A DNA stretch of 63,995 bases, counting the filler, from Basidiobolus ranarum (lineage: Eukaryota), in the NCBI GenBank assembly GCA_040143965.1. It is 6 parts of 6 records of this genome, joined end to end, with 100 filler letters (N's around TTAATTAATTAA, not from the genome) between each part and the next. Parts side by side here need not be neighbours in the genome. Positions count along the whole stretch, not along the records: positions 1 to 10,655 come from JASJQH010007556.1; 5 more parts are not named here. One strand, 5' to 3'. Made by a program: the position numbers and the translations under genes. Numbering within the stretch: the stretch's first letter is position 1; each line of letters opens with the position of its first letter. The notes beneath the pieces are model-generated. The model made no database searches. It was not told where the DNA came from and saw nothing but the letters and a program-made list of their open reading frames with translations. Below, one piece after another: positions 6,026-63,956 of the stretch.

Positions 6026-6600
6026 GCAAACTTACGAGTAAACTGACAATAGAGCCCAAGTCTACATGTAAACTGAAAATAGACCCACATAGAGATTCGA
6101 ACTTATTTTTGCACTCCTCCCCGCTCCTCCCCCGTTAATTTGTGTTTATGTGCATCAGAAATCTATGATGTCAGTATTAATAACCGTACTAGTACTAAAG
6201 CCAATAAAGGACACTGTTGTTGAAGTTACACATGAGAATTTCTTGTGGTTACCACCGAAGCCACATTGTTACACCCATCTCTTGAATAGATTACAATTGG
6301 CGCCTGAGTAACAACACAACGAAGTAAGTTGCTTATCATAGACAATTCCATCTGATATTGTTGACAAAATATTCAAGCAATCTAGGTCAAACGACATGGG
6401 GCAAATAATCAATATACCTTACGTAAATTGTCCGATTACATTAAATACCTCCATGAAAACAAATAACACAATCATCTGCTGCATTGGGAATATTTACCAG
6501 CCAAATATAATAGAAGATGGTTGCATTCCCAGGCTTGCCCGGTTTACCCATCGAATAAATATTCCCCCTTCAAAAAGATCGAACTCAAAATATTCAATTG

Positions 6601-7113
6601 ATGCTTTCAAAATCCCTATTTTCTCTCTTTTCTCTGATCCTATTACAATATGGTAATGCTGAAGTGATCACACCCGGGACTGGAGTACTCTGGAAGGCTG
6701 GTGAAAATGTTACTGTGTCTTGGAAAAATCTTCAAGAGAGCTATGTAGATGTACGTTTAGTCCATGGTGATGCTACTAATCTTCAATTGGCTTTACCAAA
6801 TGCAACTTGTTCGAATCAACCTGGCCCAGAGGGAAGTTGCTACTTTATCCTTCCTTCTCGGATCCCATCTGGTCGAAACTACGCCGTTACCGTCGGGAAG
6901 TTACCAGAAAAATACGTCTATAGCTCTTATTTTACTATCCAAGGAAATGAAACTTTACCTGAGAGTGAAGGCTGTCCCAATTTCGGTGGTTACAAGTGTC
7001 CTAAAGATATGCCTTGTTGCTCCAGTGGTGGATACTGTGGTGCCACTCAGGAATATTGTGGAGTTGGTTGCGTTGCAAAGTTTTCCTTTAATAATCAGTG
7101 TTTATCATACTAA
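6601..7113 (+). CDS. Secreted protein: Kre9/KNH-like N-terminal beta-sandwich plus CBM18 (hevein) chitin-binding domain
   Basis: Signal peptide MLSKSLFSLFSLILLQYGNA; ITPGTGVLWKAGENVTVSW...YSSYFTI pattern; C-terminal CPKDMPCCSSGGYCGATQEYCGVGC. Confidence 0.85.
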   Translation: MLSKSLFSLFSLILLQYGNAEVITPGTGVLWKAGENVTVSWKNLQESYVDVRLVHGDATNLQLALPNATCSNQPGPEGSCYFILPSRIPSGRNYAVTVGKLPEKYVYSSYFTIQGNETLPESEGCPNFGGYKCPKDMPCCSSGGYCGATQEYCGVGCVAKFSFNNQCLSY

Positions 7114-7744: not shown

Positions 7745-8339
7745 GAGTATGGATGACTGCCGGTCGTGGTATTGTGCACGCGGAGATGCCACTAACTAAG
7801 TGTCGAGGCCTTCAGCTACGGGTCAACTTGAGTGCTACTGATAAAATATGTGAGCCACGTTATCAAGAGCTTCTAGATAAGGAAATTCCGAGGATATCAC
7901 CACCGGGAGTCAACACAGTGATCAAAGGGATTCTTTTGGAGTCAGCAGTCCTTTAGTAACCAAGACTCCTACTATGTATCTCGATTTTAAGGTTGAGAAG
8001 AACCGTAAATTTGAGCAAGTTATTCCAGAGAGCTACCAAGGCTTCCTATACATACTGGAAGGTGAGGGTTACTTTGGTTCAAAAAAGACACTGGGGAAAG
8101 CACACTATACCCTGACACTCAGTGAAGAAGGAGACACAGTCGGCATAGAGACGAAGGAGAAGGCGGATCATTTTGTACTCATAGCTGGTGAACCAATCAA
8201 AGAGCCGATTGTTCAACATGGTACGTTTGTCATGAACCATGCAAGTGATATTCAACGTACATTTACTGATTATCATATGAGAATCAATGGCTTCGAGAGA
8301 GCCCATACAGAGCATTCAAAGATTGGTAATCGCCATTAA
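7745..8339 (+). pseudogene. Pirin pseudogene (5'-truncated, frameshifted)
   Basis: WMTAGRGIVHAEMP, GLQLRVNL and FVLIAGEPIKEPIVQHGTFVMN are pirin motifs. Frameshift near 7930, N-terminal half absent, conserved W and P residues substituted. Confidence 0.88.
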
Positions 8340-8569: not shown

Positions 8570-8827
8570 TTAGATATCACTCACTATTCTCAAGAGGAAT
8601 TTACTTAGAGGTTTGAAGATATATAGATTTTGATAACTTGTCCTAGAAACTCCAAACTTTGCACACATATTCCTGGAACCTTCCTTAACACATTCTATAA
8701 TTTTTTTTGTTTACATCTTGACAAAACTATAAATGTCAACTGAATACTCAATATATCAATAAGTGAAAACCACCAATTCTTCTCGTTCGAAAAACCACTT
8801 CCAACGAACTCTCAAAATACTTCAACA
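8570..8827 (+). mobile_element. Truncated copy of the solo-LTR family
   Basis: Matches 35478-35788 and 62632-63023 (AAACTTTGCACA, GACAAAACTATAAATG, CACCAATT); ends CTTCAACA. Confidence 0.85.
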
Positions 8828-9189
8828 TTCGCAAGCATAATTGCTGCCCATATGGCAGCTTCAGGAGCAATAGATTGGTGGGCTTCAACAAAATCTTGCA
8901 TATCTTCAATCCTTGTTTATGTAGCTACAGTGATGATGAAGCCAGTGCGTACAATACTGGTAATGTTTCTATTAACACCAAGAGATATGGCTCCAACCCG
9001 CGAAAATGAATTAGCATTTCCATACTAGCCTGGTACCAAATACTGAATTCAAAATGAGAATGATTAATTCAAGTATGGTTGTTTTCAAATACAACTACAT
9101 CAAAATATATCTCTAAATACTAATCGATCAGCTACTAAAAGTACAGAAAATATTTTAGATTTCAGTGATTTTTGTTTATCTACTTAGAT

Positions 9190-9515
9190 GCTCTCCCTAT
9201 TGATATATTCAATATACTCTTATCTTTAGCATACGCTACTTTGTCAATACTTTCAGCATCATCTAGCATGTTAGCATAATAGCATGGAGATAGATATTCA
9301 CTGTGATGGCTCCAAGGAAATCTTCGTGAGATCTCATCCGAATGACTCTCCCTATGACTTGTCTAATTTGGCCATAATCCCAAAATGGAGTTAGGATATG
9401 TACGTGTTGGACATTACGTAAAGTGATAGACTCACCAACAACACTACTTCCCATTAATAAAGCAATATGATTATCATTTCTATTTTTGATATAATTAAAA
9501 TTCTCTACGTTCGAT
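9190..9515 (-). pseudogene. Decayed SF2 helicase C-terminal fragment of the poxvirus D6/D11 (NPH-I) / yeast linear-plasmid type
   Basis: Reads ENFNYIKNRNDNHIALLMGSSVVGESITLRNVQHVHILTPFWDYGQIRQVIGRVIRMRSHEDF...IYLHA, then a frameshifted continuation ESIDKVAYAKDKSI; bounded by stops; very AT-rich context. Confidence 0.8.
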
Positions 9516-9743
9516 CAGGTTTCATATTTATTGATCTACATTAGGAATTTCAATAATTACTGTGGATCATTTGACTGTTGAAAATTGGTTTAAAATCTAG
9601 TACTAACTACATAAACTACCATATTGTATATTAAATATTTTAGTTCTTCTCGTAACCGATCCATATTCATATTTTGATAAATAGTTATAAATAGGCTCAT
9701 AAATTTTAATTCAATTGTAATTGGAGTTTAGTACATGTTGTAT

Positions 9744-10655
9744 TTAGCAAGCGCCAATATCATTCCAGACAGACTGACTGTTACTTCCTGGGGTATCATT
9801 TTGAGTCCACCATTTGGCTTGCCACAAATGTCCCTTGTAGGTAACCTTCTGGGCGCTGTTGTAAGCAGTGGCAGGAACCCATTCGGCAACTCCGTTGCAA
9901 ATACCGGGAACTGAAGTAGGAGTCACGGAAGCAGTACTGGTAGATCCAGTGGCAACGGTGGAAGAAGTCTTGCTAGTTACAGAGGAAGTAGCCTGGGCAG
10001 TGGAGGTGGTTACAGGAGGGATGGATGGTGAAGGGCATCCAGATCCGGTGCAGCGAACACCCTGTAGCACGTTGAGTAACTCATCGTTGGAGTCATGGCT
10101 CATATCCCAGTACATTACACCACGAAGTCCTGCTTGCTTGGTGTAGTCAACCTTGATCTTGAGTGATTGAGGATCATCATAGGAAATGAAACGCTTATCA
10201 CTGGCACGGAACAACCATGGGGTTTGGGTGGTGTTATCCCAGTAACGACTCCAGCCGCTGGCAGGAGTGTTGGGTCCTGATTGAAGAATATCACTACGAA
10301 TGGACTTCCACTTCCAAATACCAGAGTAGAATGTTCCTTCGTTGCAGAAGAAGTTAGGCTCATTAGCATCATTTGAGTCGCCCTTGGGGGTAACACTGTC
10401 CTTGGCGGCATACATATTACCGGGATTAGCATTCATATCCACGGTGGCAGTAAGAGAACGGCCATAGAATGGTAAGCCCATGACCAGTTTGTTGGCAGGC
10501 CACTTGGCACCGAGCCAGTCGTTGATGGATTGACGGAAGGAGTAAGCCTCTCCACCTTTGGCAGCATCATAGTCGAATGGAGCATTAGGGCCAGTGGTGG
10601 CAGACCAGGAGCCCATGATGTCATAAGCCATGACATTGATGAAGTCAAAGTACTG
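9744..10655 (-). CDS. GH18 chitinase with Ser/Thr linker and C-terminal CBM5/12 (ChtBD3); 5' end cut by contig end
   Basis: FDFINVMAYD, KLVMGLPFYGR, ISYDDPQS...GLRGVMYW; C-terminal VTYKGHLWQAKWWTQ. Confidence 0.95.
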   Translation of the reverse strand, partial: QYFDFINVMAYDIMGSWSATTGPNAPFDYDAAKGGEAYSFRQSINDWLGAKWPANKLVMGLPFYGRSLTATVDMNANPGNMYAAKDSVTPKGDSNDANEPNFFCNEGTFYSGIWKWKSIRSDILQSGPNTPASGWSRYWDNTTQTPWLFRASDKRFISYDDPQSLKIKVDYTKQAGLRGVMYWDMSHDSNDELLNVLQGVRCTGSGCPSPSIPPVTTSTAQATSSVTSKTSSTVATGSTSTASVTPTSVPGICNGVAEWVPATAYNSAQKVTYKGHLWQAKWWTQNDTPGSNSQSVWNDIGAC

Positions 10656-10755
10656 NNNNNNNNNNNNNNNNNNNNNNNNNNNNNNNNNNNNNNNNNNNNT
10701 TAATTAATTAANNNNNNNNNNNNNNNNNNNNNNNNNNNNNNNNNNNNNNNNNNNN
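10656..10755. other. Artificial contig linker
   Basis: 44 N + TTAATTAATTAA (stops in all six frames) + 44 N. Confidence 0.98.
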
Positions 10756-21404: not shown

Positions 21405-21504
21405 NNNNNNNNNNNNNNNNNNNNNNNNNNNNNNNNNNNNNNNNNNNNTTAATTAATTAANNNNNNNNNNNNNNNNNNNNNNNNNNNNNNNNNNNNNNNN
21501 NNNN
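21405..21504. other. Artificial contig linker
   Basis: N44-TTAATTAATTAA-N44. Confidence 0.98.
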
Positions 21505-26690: not shown

Positions 26691-27647
26691 GTTTTGGTAA
26701 ACGCTTTGTGGTTCTCAGTCAATTATTCCGGTCGAACTGGCGGACTTTATTGTATTTCAAAACATAGTGCTCTTGCCCGCAGTTCCAGCCTTCTCTTTTT
26801 AACTCAATCTGCAGCAATTATGCTTTCTATATACAATATTTGTTGTTTCCTCTAGTCGGATACATTAACCTTCTTCAATGTACAAACCTGTGAATGAACT
26901 TATAAATACAGCTATTTACTGAATACGAACACACCTCATTCTGAATGAGTAATATATATTAGTGTCAACTTAAGGTCTCTGAAATGTTGCAGGTGCTTGA
27001 AAATCTTGAGGCACCAGTAGCATAAATGAAGTAGCCTATGCTCAAGCGTTATTTAGGCCAGCTCCCTAGAAATTCCGAGTCGCTGCCAAAAGTATAGAAT
27101 ATTATACCAATTGAATTTGATATTAGGAGATTTATCTCGATTCAATCCCTCACAAATATCAACACAGGGCTCTTGAGGCCAACCGCGATGCAACAACACA
27201 AGTGAACTGGATCCTAACTTTCCAAATTCATATTTGTACAGTGATTTCAGTGTTACATTTGCATGGTAACAATGAAAAGGTCTTATCTGATTTATTACTG
27301 GAGCATTTCTTGATGAGACTATATATGAACTATCGTTTCCTGAATCTAATAAGAGATCTTGGCTATACTTGTTAGCTTACTGATATGGAGGCATTCTAAT
27401 CATTATTATTGAAGCTGAAGCCCAGTCCCATTGTGGGTAACCATGTCCGACCTTTACAAACAAAATATGTACAATGTGAGAACTAACTTTGCTGGTCAGT
27501 AGAGTGAGATGTACCACAAGTGCCTGCCAAGAAAAACAACAAACTTGATATATAATCATGATAGTATCAGAGCACCATGGGACTTGGGCTGGGTACTAGT
27601 CACCATTTTAAGAGGGAACTACTTTGCATAGTATTCGAACGGCTTAA

Positions 27648-27958
27648 TGTTAAAGTATTTTGGGAGCCTGTTGGAAGCGGTTTGGAGAACTAGAGAAATT
27701 GGTGGTTTTCACTTATTGATTTATTGAGTTGAAAGTTGACATTTATAGTTTTGTCAAGATGTAAGTGTAGAGTGCATTAAGGAAGGTCCCAGGAACATGT
27801 GTGCAAAGTTTGGGGCTTCTTTGAAAAATCTATATATCTGAGAACTTCCAAGTAAATTCCGATTGAAAATAATGGGTGATATCTTAGTAGAATATAGGAT
27901 AACTAAATACTAAGCTATATATGACTATATAGGTGTTTAGGCAATGCAAATTTCAACA
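27648..27958 (-). mobile_element. Solo LTR (TGTT...AACA termini) with 5-bp TSD CTTAA
   Basis: Starts TGTTAAA and ends TTTCAACA; CTTAA at 27643-27647 and 27959-27963. Strand is given relative to the 35478 copy. Confidence 0.88.
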
Positions 27959-27989: not shown

Positions 27990-28569
27990 ATGTTGGAATG
28001 TTTTGGGATTTGTTGGAAGTGGTTTGGAGAACTAGAAGAATTGGTAAAAATATTCCAAGTAAATTCCTCTTGAGAAGATCTTAGTGTTAAAGTATTTGGG
28101 AGCCTGTTGGAAGTGGTTTGGAGAATAAAAGAAATTGGTGGTTTTCACTTGTTGATTTATTGAGTATTCAGTTGACATTTATAGTTTTGTCATGCACCAC
28201 ACCATTTGGCACTGGGTATAAGTGTTAAAGTATTTGGGAGCCTGCTGGAAATGGTTTGGAGAATTAGAGAAATTGGTGCTTTTCACTTATTGATTTATTT
28301 AGTTGAAGTTAACATGTATAGTTTTGTCACGATGTAAACAAACTAACGTATAGAATGTGTTAAGGAAGGTCCCAGGAACATATGTGCAAAGTTTGGGGCT
28401 TCTAGCACAGGTTTGAAAAATCTATATATCTGAGAACATCTAAGTTAGTAAGAAATATTCAAGTAAATTCCGATTGAGAATAATGGATAATTTCTTAGTG
28501 AAATATAAGATAACTAAGTACTAAGCTATATATGACTATATAGGTGTTTAGGCAATGCTAATTTCAACA
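27990..28569 (-). mobile_element. Cluster of partial and full copies of the same LTR family
   Basis: Degenerate copy ~27990-28079, partial copy from 28085, full copy 28223-28569; CTTAG at 28080-28084 and 28570-28574. Confidence 0.85.
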
Positions 28570-32136: not shown

Positions 32137-32236
32137 NNNNNNNNNNNNNNNNNNNNNNNNNNNNNNNNNNNNNNNNNNNNTTAATTAATTAANNNNNNNN
32201 NNNNNNNNNNNNNNNNNNNNNNNNNNNNNNNNNNNN
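32137..32236. other. Artificial contig linker
   Basis: N44-TTAATTAATTAA-N44. Confidence 0.98.
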
Positions 32237-35477: not shown

Positions 35478-35788
35478 TGTTGAACATAGCAACTTAGCCT
35501 AAACATCTATAGAAGTCATATATAGCTTAGTAGTTAGTTATTCCATATTTCACGAAGAAATCACGAACTACTCTCAAGAGGAATTTACTTAGAAGTTCTC
35601 AGATATATAGATTTTTCAAAGAAGCCCCAAACTTTGCACATATGTTCCTAGGACCTTCCTTAACACATTCTACACGTTTGTTTGTTTACATCATGACAAC
35701 ACTATAAATGCCAACTTTCTACTCAATAAATCAATAAGTGACGACCACCAATTCTTCTAGTTCAACAAACTCCCAAAATACTTCAACA
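35478..35788 (+). mobile_element. Solo LTR with 5-bp TSD GTTAA
   Basis: TGTTGAA...TTCAACA termini; GTTAA at 35473-35477 and 35789-35793. Confidence 0.88.
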
Positions 35789-42298: not shown

Positions 42299-42626
42299 TT
42301 TTAAAGTATTTTGGGAGCCAGTTGGAAGTTGTTTGGAGAAATGGCGAAATTGGTGGTTTTCACTTATTGACTTATTGAGTAGAGAGTGGACATTTAAAGA
42401 TTTGTCACAATGTAAGCCAAATAATATGTAGCATGTGCTAAGGAAAATCTCAGGAACATGTATGCAAAGCTTAATGCTTCTAGCACAAGTTTGAAAAATA
42501 TATATATCTGGGAACTTCCAAGTAAATTCTGATTGAGAAAAGTGAGTGATATCTTAGTGAAATATAGGATAACTAAATACTAAGCAATATATATTGCTAT
42601 ATAGATGCTTAGGAAATGCTAATTTT
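42299..42626 (-). mobile_element. Degenerate solo-LTR copy
   Basis: Co-linear with 27648-27958 (AAAGTATTTTGGGAGCC...AATTGGTGGTTTTCACTTATTGA...GGATAACTAAATACTAAGC); termini eroded. Confidence 0.85.
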
Positions 42627-42862: not shown

Positions 42863-42962
42863 NNNNNNNNNNNNNNNNNNNNNNNNNNNNNNNNNNNNNN
42901 NNNNNNTTAATTAATTAANNNNNNNNNNNNNNNNNNNNNNNNNNNNNNNNNNNNNNNNNNNN
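42863..42962. other. Artificial contig linker
   Basis: N44-TTAATTAATTAA-N44. Confidence 0.98.
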
Positions 42963-53584: not shown

Positions 53585-53684
53585 NNNNNNNNNNNNNNNN
53601 NNNNNNNNNNNNNNNNNNNNNNNNNNNNTTAATTAATTAANNNNNNNNNNNNNNNNNNNNNNNNNNNNNNNNNNNNNNNNNNNN
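53585..53684. other. Artificial contig linker
   Basis: N44-TTAATTAATTAA-N44. Confidence 0.98.
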
Positions 53685-62631: not shown

Positions 62632-63023
62632 TGTTAAAATTCGCATTGCCTGAACACCTATATAGTCATATATAGCTTAGTATTTAGTTATTCCATATTT
62701 AACTAAGACATCACCCACTATTCTCATGAGGAATTTACTTAGAAGCTCTCAGAAGTATAGATTCTTTAAACTTGTCCTAGAGGCCCTAAACTTTTCTTAC
62801 TTAGAAGTTCTCAGATATATAGATTTTGATAACTTGTGCTAGAAGCCCCAAACTTTGCACACATGCTGCTGGGACCCTTCTGAACCCATTCTACATGTTT
62901 GTTTGTCTACATCTTGACAAAACTATAGATGTTGATTTTCAACTCAATATATCAATATGTGAAAAGCACCAATTCTTCTACTTCTCCAAACCACTTCCAA
63001 CAAACTCCCAAGATACGTTAACA
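62632..63023 (+). mobile_element. Solo-LTR copy with an internal ~60-nt duplication
   Basis: TGTTAA...TTAACA termini; TACTTAGAAG...AAACTTT block repeated at ~62735 and ~62797; no intact TSD. Confidence 0.87.
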
Positions 63024-63956
63024 ATCTCATCTGCCTAAAAGTAATCAAACTTAAAAAGGATTATTACTTTAATCATGTGCATACTCTCTTCATCTATTTA
63101 ATGTTGACATGCTGATAAAAGAAGAGAAAGTTATCATTAGAAATAGGATAAGTAAGAGGTTCAAATTCACTGGAAGCTATTCCAGTATTTTACCAAGCCT
63201 TCTCAGAGTCCTAAGAGCACAATTCAGTTGATATTTTCATTATTTTTAAAGTATGCACTATACTTCCTTTTTGATCCAATAAGCTTAAGCATAATATTCC
63301 TTCTACTCCTTGCAGACACTTTAAACTCATGTGTGATATTTCAACATCAGCAGTAGCTACCATATCATAGGATATATTCCATCAGCTCCGAGGATATCAT
63401 ATTTTGATTTAATGTATTGGAGAAATATTGTTTAAAAGCAATTGTACATTTGGATAATCCCTAATTGTGGTATCTTAGTTGAGAGCACTATTTCGAATAA
63501 TTAACAGATGGCAATAACTGGTTCAATAAAAGAAATATGCCCAAAAAGATATGAAACCTTCAAGAATTCTAAGCAAAACAGTTTCATATATTCCCCTTCT
63601 TTTTTAATACTGTTTTTATACAATGATATACAGTGCTGTCATCTACTTCCCTCTACTGCCATCACTTACGTTTGTACCCTACTCGCAGCACTTAGTACTA
63701 CCTGGGATATAGATTATTCAAAGTAGATGAAGTAACCCTAACCCTAAGTACTAGAGCTTGGCAATATAGCTTCCTACTTTTCTGAAACTCAAAGCAGCCG
63801 AATGAATCATGTTCTTAGTGTAAAGTTACACTCAATGATGAAAGCAATATAATAAAGTGGTTATTATATTTATTGCTCCTTTATTCCGAGAAACTATTTG
63901 ATTTTCCATGGTCCGATATCGGGTATTAAGCCCTTGGTATTATGCGAAAGAGCCGA

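Follow-up and report, generated by a model that had tools for sequence, protein, structure and literature searches.

Where does a short, damaged piece of helicase gene, lying between a chitinase gene and a pirin gene of the fungus Basidiobolus ranarum (assembly GCA_040143965.1), come from? A sequence-only reading of this locus had taken it for an endogenised fragment of either a cytoplasmic virus-like element (VLE) or a large DNA virus. To our knowledge, VLEs had for many years been regarded as restricted to budding yeasts; their free helper plasmid is ca. 16 kb long. Frank and Wolfe are said to have reported in 2009 NUPAVs, i.e., nuclear relics of cytoplasmic VLE genes.

NUPAVs are described in PMC4431711, which cites Frank and Wolfe 2009 and gives immunity genes as the largest NUPAV group. 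The helicase encoded by ORF4 of pGKL2 resembles vaccinia NPH-I and VETF-S, is indispensable and associates with the VLE RNA polymerase and with VLE DNA, and K2ORF4p has been proposed to act, probably, in initiation as an ATP-dependent factor like VETF (Sýkora et al. 2018, PMC6211774). Free VLEs have been described in Cunninghamella, Umbelopsis, Podila, Coemansia and possibly Kappamyces; they carry housekeeping genes that include the helicase YKP4, and the authors infer that they are non-integrated and argue that the ancestor of terrestrial fungi already had VLEs (Heneghan, Salzberg and Wolfe 2026, PMC13348850). The main text of that paper makes no mention of Basidiobolus or Entomophthor-, its matches in Zoopagomycota sitting in supplementary Table S2. 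On the viral side, NCLDV-like insertions (“fundsalphaviruses”) are listed for 14 fungi, including Basidiobolus meristosporus and B. heterosporus; the genes that these elements share include a D6/D11-like SNF2 helicase, and sequences from the moss Physcomitrium patens group with them in the polymerase tree (Gong, Zhang and Han 2020, PMC7017919). A full-text literature search found no paper tying Basidiobolus to a linear plasmid, a virus-like element or the name Nucleocytoviricota.

A broken helicase gene

The window, i.e., the whole stretch of DNA that was analyzed (63,995 nucleotides, filler included), consists of six contigs of 10,655, 10,649, 10,632, 10,626, 10,622 and 10,311 bases, the last one cut at the window end. 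They are joined by 44 N, TTAATTAATTAA and another 44 N at 10656-10755, 21405-21504, 32137-32236, 42863-42962 and 53585-53684. Since the window is a chain of separate contigs, features on different contigs have no physical linkage. The helicase relic is on the first contig, and its parts and neighbors are collected in Table 1.

Table 1. Features at and around the helicase relic of B. ranarum (positions along the window)
Feature	Position	Strand	Basis or remark
Pirin C-terminal cupin exon	7881..8339	plus	Pirin_C E 6e-24; convergent with the chitinase
Frameshifted tail of the relic, probable (ESIDKVAYAKDKS...)	9207..9265	minus	Short BLAST; collinear with residues ca. 409-431 of the nearest relatives
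Helicase relic core	9266..9514	minus	83-codon open frame, SF2 motifs V and VI, Helicase_C
In-frame stop (9515-9517) and two more codons aligning with relatives	9515..9523	minus	tblastn, frame reading
AT-rich spacer, from the relic to the chitinase stop codon	9524..9743		24% G+C over 9531-9743
GH18 chitinase with CBM5/12 module, 3' part, cut by the contig end	9744..10655	minus	Pfam, protein search

The stop-to-stop frame 9263..9514 reads exactly as the sequence-only reading had quoted it, and it matches the Pfam family Helicase_C with an E value of 3.3e-8, over the curated cut-off. The core carries motif V (GSSVVGESITL) and motif VI (QVIGRVIRMRSH) of SF2 helicases, i.e., the helicase C-terminal lobe of the D6/D11-like class, and corresponds to residues ca. 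324-407 of relatives that are 597 to 667 residues long. When the profile of this helicase family (see below) was run against 4415 six-frame pieces covering the whole window, the relic was recovered at E 2.1e-34, its core covering profile positions 327-405, and the next piece scored E 5.3; the relic is single-copy in the window. Neither tblastn with five relatives nor this profile search revealed further helicase pieces in the window. By the same two approaches, ATPase lobe 1 (Walker A, DExH) and the C-terminal domain were found nowhere in the window, and there was no intact parent gene within it. Being a fragment that lacks lobe 1, the feature is the relic of a member of the D6/D11 class and not a working member.

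Two lesions accompany the truncation. The tblastn alignments of the relatives P0001, P0003, P0004 and P0005 extend to 9523, which marks the 5' limit of detectable homology and places the in-frame stop inside the homologous stretch. At the other end, a frameshift is located at ca. 9263-9275, beyond which the out-of-frame tail is a probable part of the relic, to judge from its sequence matches. In a short BLAST against 77 reference proteins, the two best matches of the tail were collinear with the core (residues 409-431 of P0001, E 0.018; residues 410-428 of P0002, E 0.033), and it aligned to positions 421-429 of the family profile (E 0.05 at Z=1). When the profile was run across the whole window, the tail alone did not reach E 50, so that the frameshifted tail of the sequence-only reading is weakly confirmed. 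Homology runs out near 9207. With its tail, the relic spans profile positions ca. 327-430 of 596, i.e., ca. 330 bp or ca. 17% of the gene, and it combines truncation, an in-frame stop and a frameshift, the type of degeneracy found in a NUPAV-type relic.

Affinity to the D6/D11 helicases

Comparison of the relic with all solved structures, with E values up to 10, gave three matches. Two of them are vaccinia proteins, the small subunit of VETF (VETF-S, D6; 7amv_W) with E 1.6e-7 and NPH-I (D11; 6rfl_Y) with E 1.5e-5, in both cases over the same motif V-VI region. The third is a designed protein (E 0.53) and was discarded as noise. Together with the Helicase_C match, these sole real structural matches indicate that the D6/D11-type motif V-VI block had been correctly recognized. 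One of the nearest full-length relatives, P0002, behaves in the same way: compared by sequence with the solved structures, it matches VETF-S at E 4e-12, NPH-I at E 2e-8 and cellular ISWI at E 5e-6, the last over lobe 1 only. Its AlphaFold model (pLDDT 78, pTM 0.61) has VETF-S (7amv_W) as the first Foldseek match (E 3.9e-20, TM 0.48/0.50, 21% identity), followed by NPH-I and then by cellular remodellers, from 1e-15. Against BFVD, the leading matches of the model are D6/D11-like helicases of the irido-, asco-, pitho-, marseille- and mimivirus type, and the large Atlas clusters nearest to another member of the short family described below are all viral, mostly Nucleocytoviricota. In sequence, in the fold of P0002 and in Atlas neighbors, the relic and its family are therefore closer to poxvirus and NCLDV D6 and D11 than to cellular SNF2 proteins. 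The best relatives of the relic are not cellular remodellers; the outcome that would have spoken against the earlier reading, best matches to cellular SNF2/RAD5-type helicases, did not occur, and D6, D11 and a short family 47-70% identical to the relic were found instead. The relationship to vaccinia VETF-S is nevertheless a distant one (the 21% identity refers to P0002), and the short fungal family has a conserved C-terminal domain of its own.

A family of short helicases

A word-seeded search for longer proteins related to the relic returned five at E <= 0.01 among 15 candidates, 284 to 667 residues long and 66-69% identical to it over residues ca. 321-407. In an exhaustive search of representatives, 2540 proteins were found at E <= 0.001, 70 at E <= 1e-10 and none at E <= 1e-30; the top three are 602 to 610 residues long, and after them come mainly proteins of 880 to 1050 residues. 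Thirteen proteins of ca. 600 residues could be aligned end to end (alignment A1), sharing both SF2 lobes and the conserved C-terminal domain. A profile search with A1, in which 7999 candidates were scored, found 259 proteins at E <= 1e-5, 28 of them at E <= 3e-170 and the next score at 8e-58; the A1 members P0016, P0017, P0019, P0064 and P0086 fall outside what this word-limited search returned. Nearly all of the 28 members of the short family (26) are encoded on contigs of 11.7 kb or less, the other two being on contigs of 27 kb and 69 kb. Two of the 28 carry an organism name, i.e., Coemansia reversa NRRL 1564 (609 residues, 10.2-kb contig) and Cunninghamella echinulata (448 residues, 69-kb contig). 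The relic is 47-70% identical to this short family and 33-52% identical to the long helicases.

From the two organism names, the contig sizes and the protein length, we infer that these short helicases are those of VLEs. YKP4 (ORF4 of pGKL2) is likewise a D6/D11-class SF2 helicase, and the relatives of the relic are ca. 600 residues long, with AT-rich coding sequences on small contigs, the named ones coming from VLE-bearing genera. The likeness is drawn through these relatives, and YKP4 is a full gene, whereas the relic is a broken ca. 17% of one. A tblastn search with P0017 in a plasmid collection without fungal plasmids gave one cyanobacterial match, and a separate tblastn search of a phage collection gave only weak generic helicase matches (best E 3e-5).

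Two peculiarities of the family deserve mention. P0001 and P0002 have an insertion of ca. 70 residues (residues ca. 445-525) between the helicase core and the C-terminal domain that is missing in the other 11 members of A1 and is modelled at pLDDT < 50. The Cunninghamella echinulata entry (P0175), with 448 residues and on a 69-kb contig, is unlike the members whose contigs measure 12 kb or less. Either a VLE helicase inserted into the nuclear DNA of a mucoralean fungus or a gene-model artefact may account for this entry.

The phylogeny of the fragment was inferred from 50 rows, consisting of the 28 members of the short family, five further short proteins, 16 long ones and the relic (IQ-TREE quick search, LG+G4, on 786 of the 1574 columns). 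The short family, in which the relic is included, is split from the long proteins at an SH-aLRT of 100. These long helicases, of the giant-virus type, have 900 to 1100 residues, and the helicase of the moss Physcomitrium patens (P0177) falls among them. Within the short family, the relic joins P0001 and P0002 (SH-aLRT 98), inside a 20-row clade (SH-aLRT 100) that also holds the Cunninghamella entry, the Coemansia entry being in another subclade. It should be noted that the relic fills just 11% of the tree columns, which makes its exact sister uncertain but not its family. The relic thus groups with the helicases of VLE-bearing genera, represented by the two organism-named members among the 28, and apart from the giant-virus type. 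The earlier reading of an endogenised helicase fragment of a VLE or a virus is supported, and of the two donors that it had left open, the tree favors the one represented by the short, VLE-type helicases over that of the long, giant-virus-type ones.

Decay and composition

Within the core of the relic, 21 of the 23 invariant A1 columns are kept, the two changes being Gly to Asp and Asn to Asp, vs agreement with P0002 in 34 of the 53 variable columns (Fisher p 0.024). The differences avoid conserved positions, which suggests that the 30% divergence mostly accumulated in an unsampled element in which selection still acted on the gene. This pattern of substitutions also suggests that decay after the insertion was modest and that the insertion may be fairly young. 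The G+C content is 36% in the relic (31% at third positions), 50% in the chitinase (51%) and 34% in the surrounding spacer. Since the relic (34-36%) does not differ from the host spacer, composition is no independent sign of a foreign origin.

The genomic neighborhood

The chitinase and pirin genes are convergent, and the 1.4-kb spacer that separates their 3' ends contains the relic. The relic begins ca. 215 bases downstream of the chitinase, on the same strand, and the pirin side is ca. 870 bp away. Both flanks, the chitinase and the pirin exon on the same contig as the relic, are host genes, as in a NUPAV-type relic; the integration is read from one assembled contig.

The best relative of the chitinase is the Basidiobolus meristosporus protein K493DRAFT_384907 (85% identity, 258 of 304 residues, 100% coverage), followed by two B. 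ranarum proteins (64% and 61%) and then by Mortierellaceae (50-60%), in a search in which 271 of 1497 candidate proteins reached E <= 1e-20. The alignment reaches residue 526 of 526 of K493DRAFT_384907 and, as it ends on the last residue, the host chitinase stops at 9744-9746. Killer VLEs also encode chitinases, and a VLE origin of this gene was considered; it was rejected on the G+C content of 50%, the combination of GH18 and CBM5/12 and the full-length relatives in Basidiobolus, Mortierellaceae and Mucorales, many of them on long contigs. By its sequence, the chitinase next to the relic looks like an ordinary host GH18 and CBM5/12 gene. On the same contig, an open frame at 6559-7113 (plus strand) has a Kre9/KNH-like domain (E 1.4e-6) and then a chitin-recognition domain (E 8e-6, just under the curated cut-off), and is probably a cell-wall protein gene.

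The spacer itself yielded nothing else that could be connected with the helicase. The stretch 9540-9720, which the earlier reading had taken for a second, stop-interrupted protein-like frame, found no support as such: its best Pfam match was DUF2292 (E 0.099, under the cut-off), and there was no collinear match to the helicase family in the three minus-strand frames. Nor was a collinear helicase remnant found upstream of the relic (9515-9745, three minus-strand frames) or downstream of it (8834-9200). Beside the chitinase stop there was a 14-residue match with six gaps (E 0.046), which was put down to chance, and no small frame of the spacer exceeded the Pfam cut-off. The search for terminal or flanking repeats around the relic gave just short AT-rich matches at chance level, and a target-site duplication was absent.

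Other features of the spacer were recorded as well. The segment 8834-9030 has 40-43% G+C within the AT-rich spacer and open frames of 34 to 94 codons on both strands, none of which matches a Pfam family. Next to it, at 8572-8833 and ca. 370 bp from the relic, is one copy of a dispersed repeat of ca. 260 bp, the others being at 62797-63029, 35556-35788, 27646-27884, 28223-28445 and 42301-42554. These six copies in 64 kb, on four contigs, have 77-85% mutual identity and no coding match; the repeat is possibly a SINE- or MITE-like element.

Companion genes of a VLE or a virus were not found either. Among 22 AT-rich frames of 60 to 109 codons across the window (22 of the 190 frames in this size range, the remaining 168 being above 36% G+C), the helicase frame was the sole match to Pfam when other VLE genes were looked for. 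On the contig of the relic, Pfam, the family profile and the AT-rich frame scan revealed no viral neighbor genes. The larger frames of the other contigs code for ordinary eukaryotic proteins (GH16, ABC transporter, P450, G-patch, saposin, HBS1/eRF3-like GTPase, BRCT and anthranilate synthase), and scans of the window for Rfam families and tRNAs found none.

Origin of the relic

Homologous to the short helicases and placed among them, truncated, broken by two lesions and flanked by host genes, the relic is probably a non-functional, NUPAV-like nuclear remnant of a helicase gene of the VLE type, taken up from an element in the cytoplasm. The source would be the helicase gene of a VLE helper plasmid, i.e., the counterpart of YKP4 (pGKL2 ORF4) in budding yeasts, of the D6/D11 class of SF2. 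In the source element, and by analogy with vaccinia VETF, the full-length protein would have acted as an ATP-dependent transcription factor of the element's own RNA polymerase. The relic copy is unable to do that because lobe 1 and the C-terminal domain are missing and because of the in-frame stop and the frameshift. As to its arrival, the most likely route would be that DNA of the cytoplasmic element was caught in the repair of a broken chromosome, as in yeast NUPAVs. Like these, the relic is a short, degenerate piece of a cytoplasmic VLE-type gene in nuclear DNA between host genes. However, the hosts of NUPAVs are Saccharomycotina, and Basidiobolus belongs to the Zoopagomycota in the broad sense; the largest group of NUPAVs derives from immunity genes (PMC4431711), in contrast to the housekeeping helicase found here. 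Two observations count against a VLE origin: the Cunninghamella entry, whose 448 residues and 69-kb contig do not look like those of a free helper plasmid of 16 kb, and the outcome of the tblastn, profile and AT-rich frame searches, which revealed no other VLE-like piece in the window.

A viral donor has to be taken seriously, given that NCLDV-like insertions with a D6/D11-like helicase have already been reported in Basidiobolus (PMC7017919). The relic would then come from an integrated NCLDV-like virus, i.e., an endogenous viral element of the fundsalphavirus type, and not from a plasmid-like VLE. Relic and fundsalphaviruses, as listed there for B. meristosporus and B. heterosporus, share the host genus, the D6/D11-like helicase and an endogenised, degraded state, and the relic is still 33-52% identical to the long helicases. 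It is, however, more similar to the short family, and it clusters there and not with the long NCLDV-type proteins. These include the helicase of the moss (P0177), grouped with fundsalphaviruses by the polymerase tree in PMC7017919, which is separated from the family of the relic by a branch with a support of 100. No other viral gene was found on the contig either. An NCLDV-like source seems, on these grounds, rather unlikely, and we infer a VLE, and not a virus, as the donor.

An assembly artefact or contamination, in which reads of a free element or of another organism had been joined to a nuclear contig, has to be weighed as well. The assembly is fragmented, as the short contigs of ca. 10.6 kb indicate, and a mixed-species sample with VLEs has been described (PMC13348850). 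However, a chimeric join would be expected more at a contig end and with an intact coding sequence, and the relic is cut short on either side, is interrupted by a stop as well as a frameshift and sits inside a contig, with host genes at 215 bp and ca. 870 bp; we therefore consider such a join improbable. Least probable of all is that the relic serves as an exon in a domesticated, functional host gene, or that it is what decay has left of a cellular SNF2/RAD5-type paralogue, in spite of the near-complete set of invariant residues and of the fold shared with cellular remodellers, because neither lobe 1 nor the C-terminal domain is in the window, the stop interrupts the homologous stretch, the tail is in a different frame, ISWI matches just lobe 1 of P0002, and far more weakly than VETF-S does, and the Atlas neighbors are all viral.

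Implications for the host range of virus-like elements

The sequence-only reading had foreseen a wider host range of such elements. As regards Basidiobolus this still stands, the genus being absent from the main text of PMC13348850, but free VLEs were published in 2026 for Coemansia and Mucoromycota (PMC13348850) and NCLDV-like insertions in 2020 for Basidiobolus itself (PMC7017919). After these two papers, the relic extends published knowledge in an incremental way and is not a new kind of thing. Whether the Basidiobolus lineage is a present or recent host of a helper plasmid of the cytoplasmic VLE type, akin to the elements that encode P0001 and P0002, appears to us evenly balanced. If it is, the relic would be the first VLE housekeeping gene seen to have entered nuclear DNA outside the budding yeasts, a further zoopagomycete lineage would enter the VLE host range, and the antiquity proposed for VLEs in terrestrial fungi would gain independent evidence of a fossil type. 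Since nuclear relics do not depend on the persistence of the element, they would be usable to survey past VLE carriage where strains have lost their plasmids.
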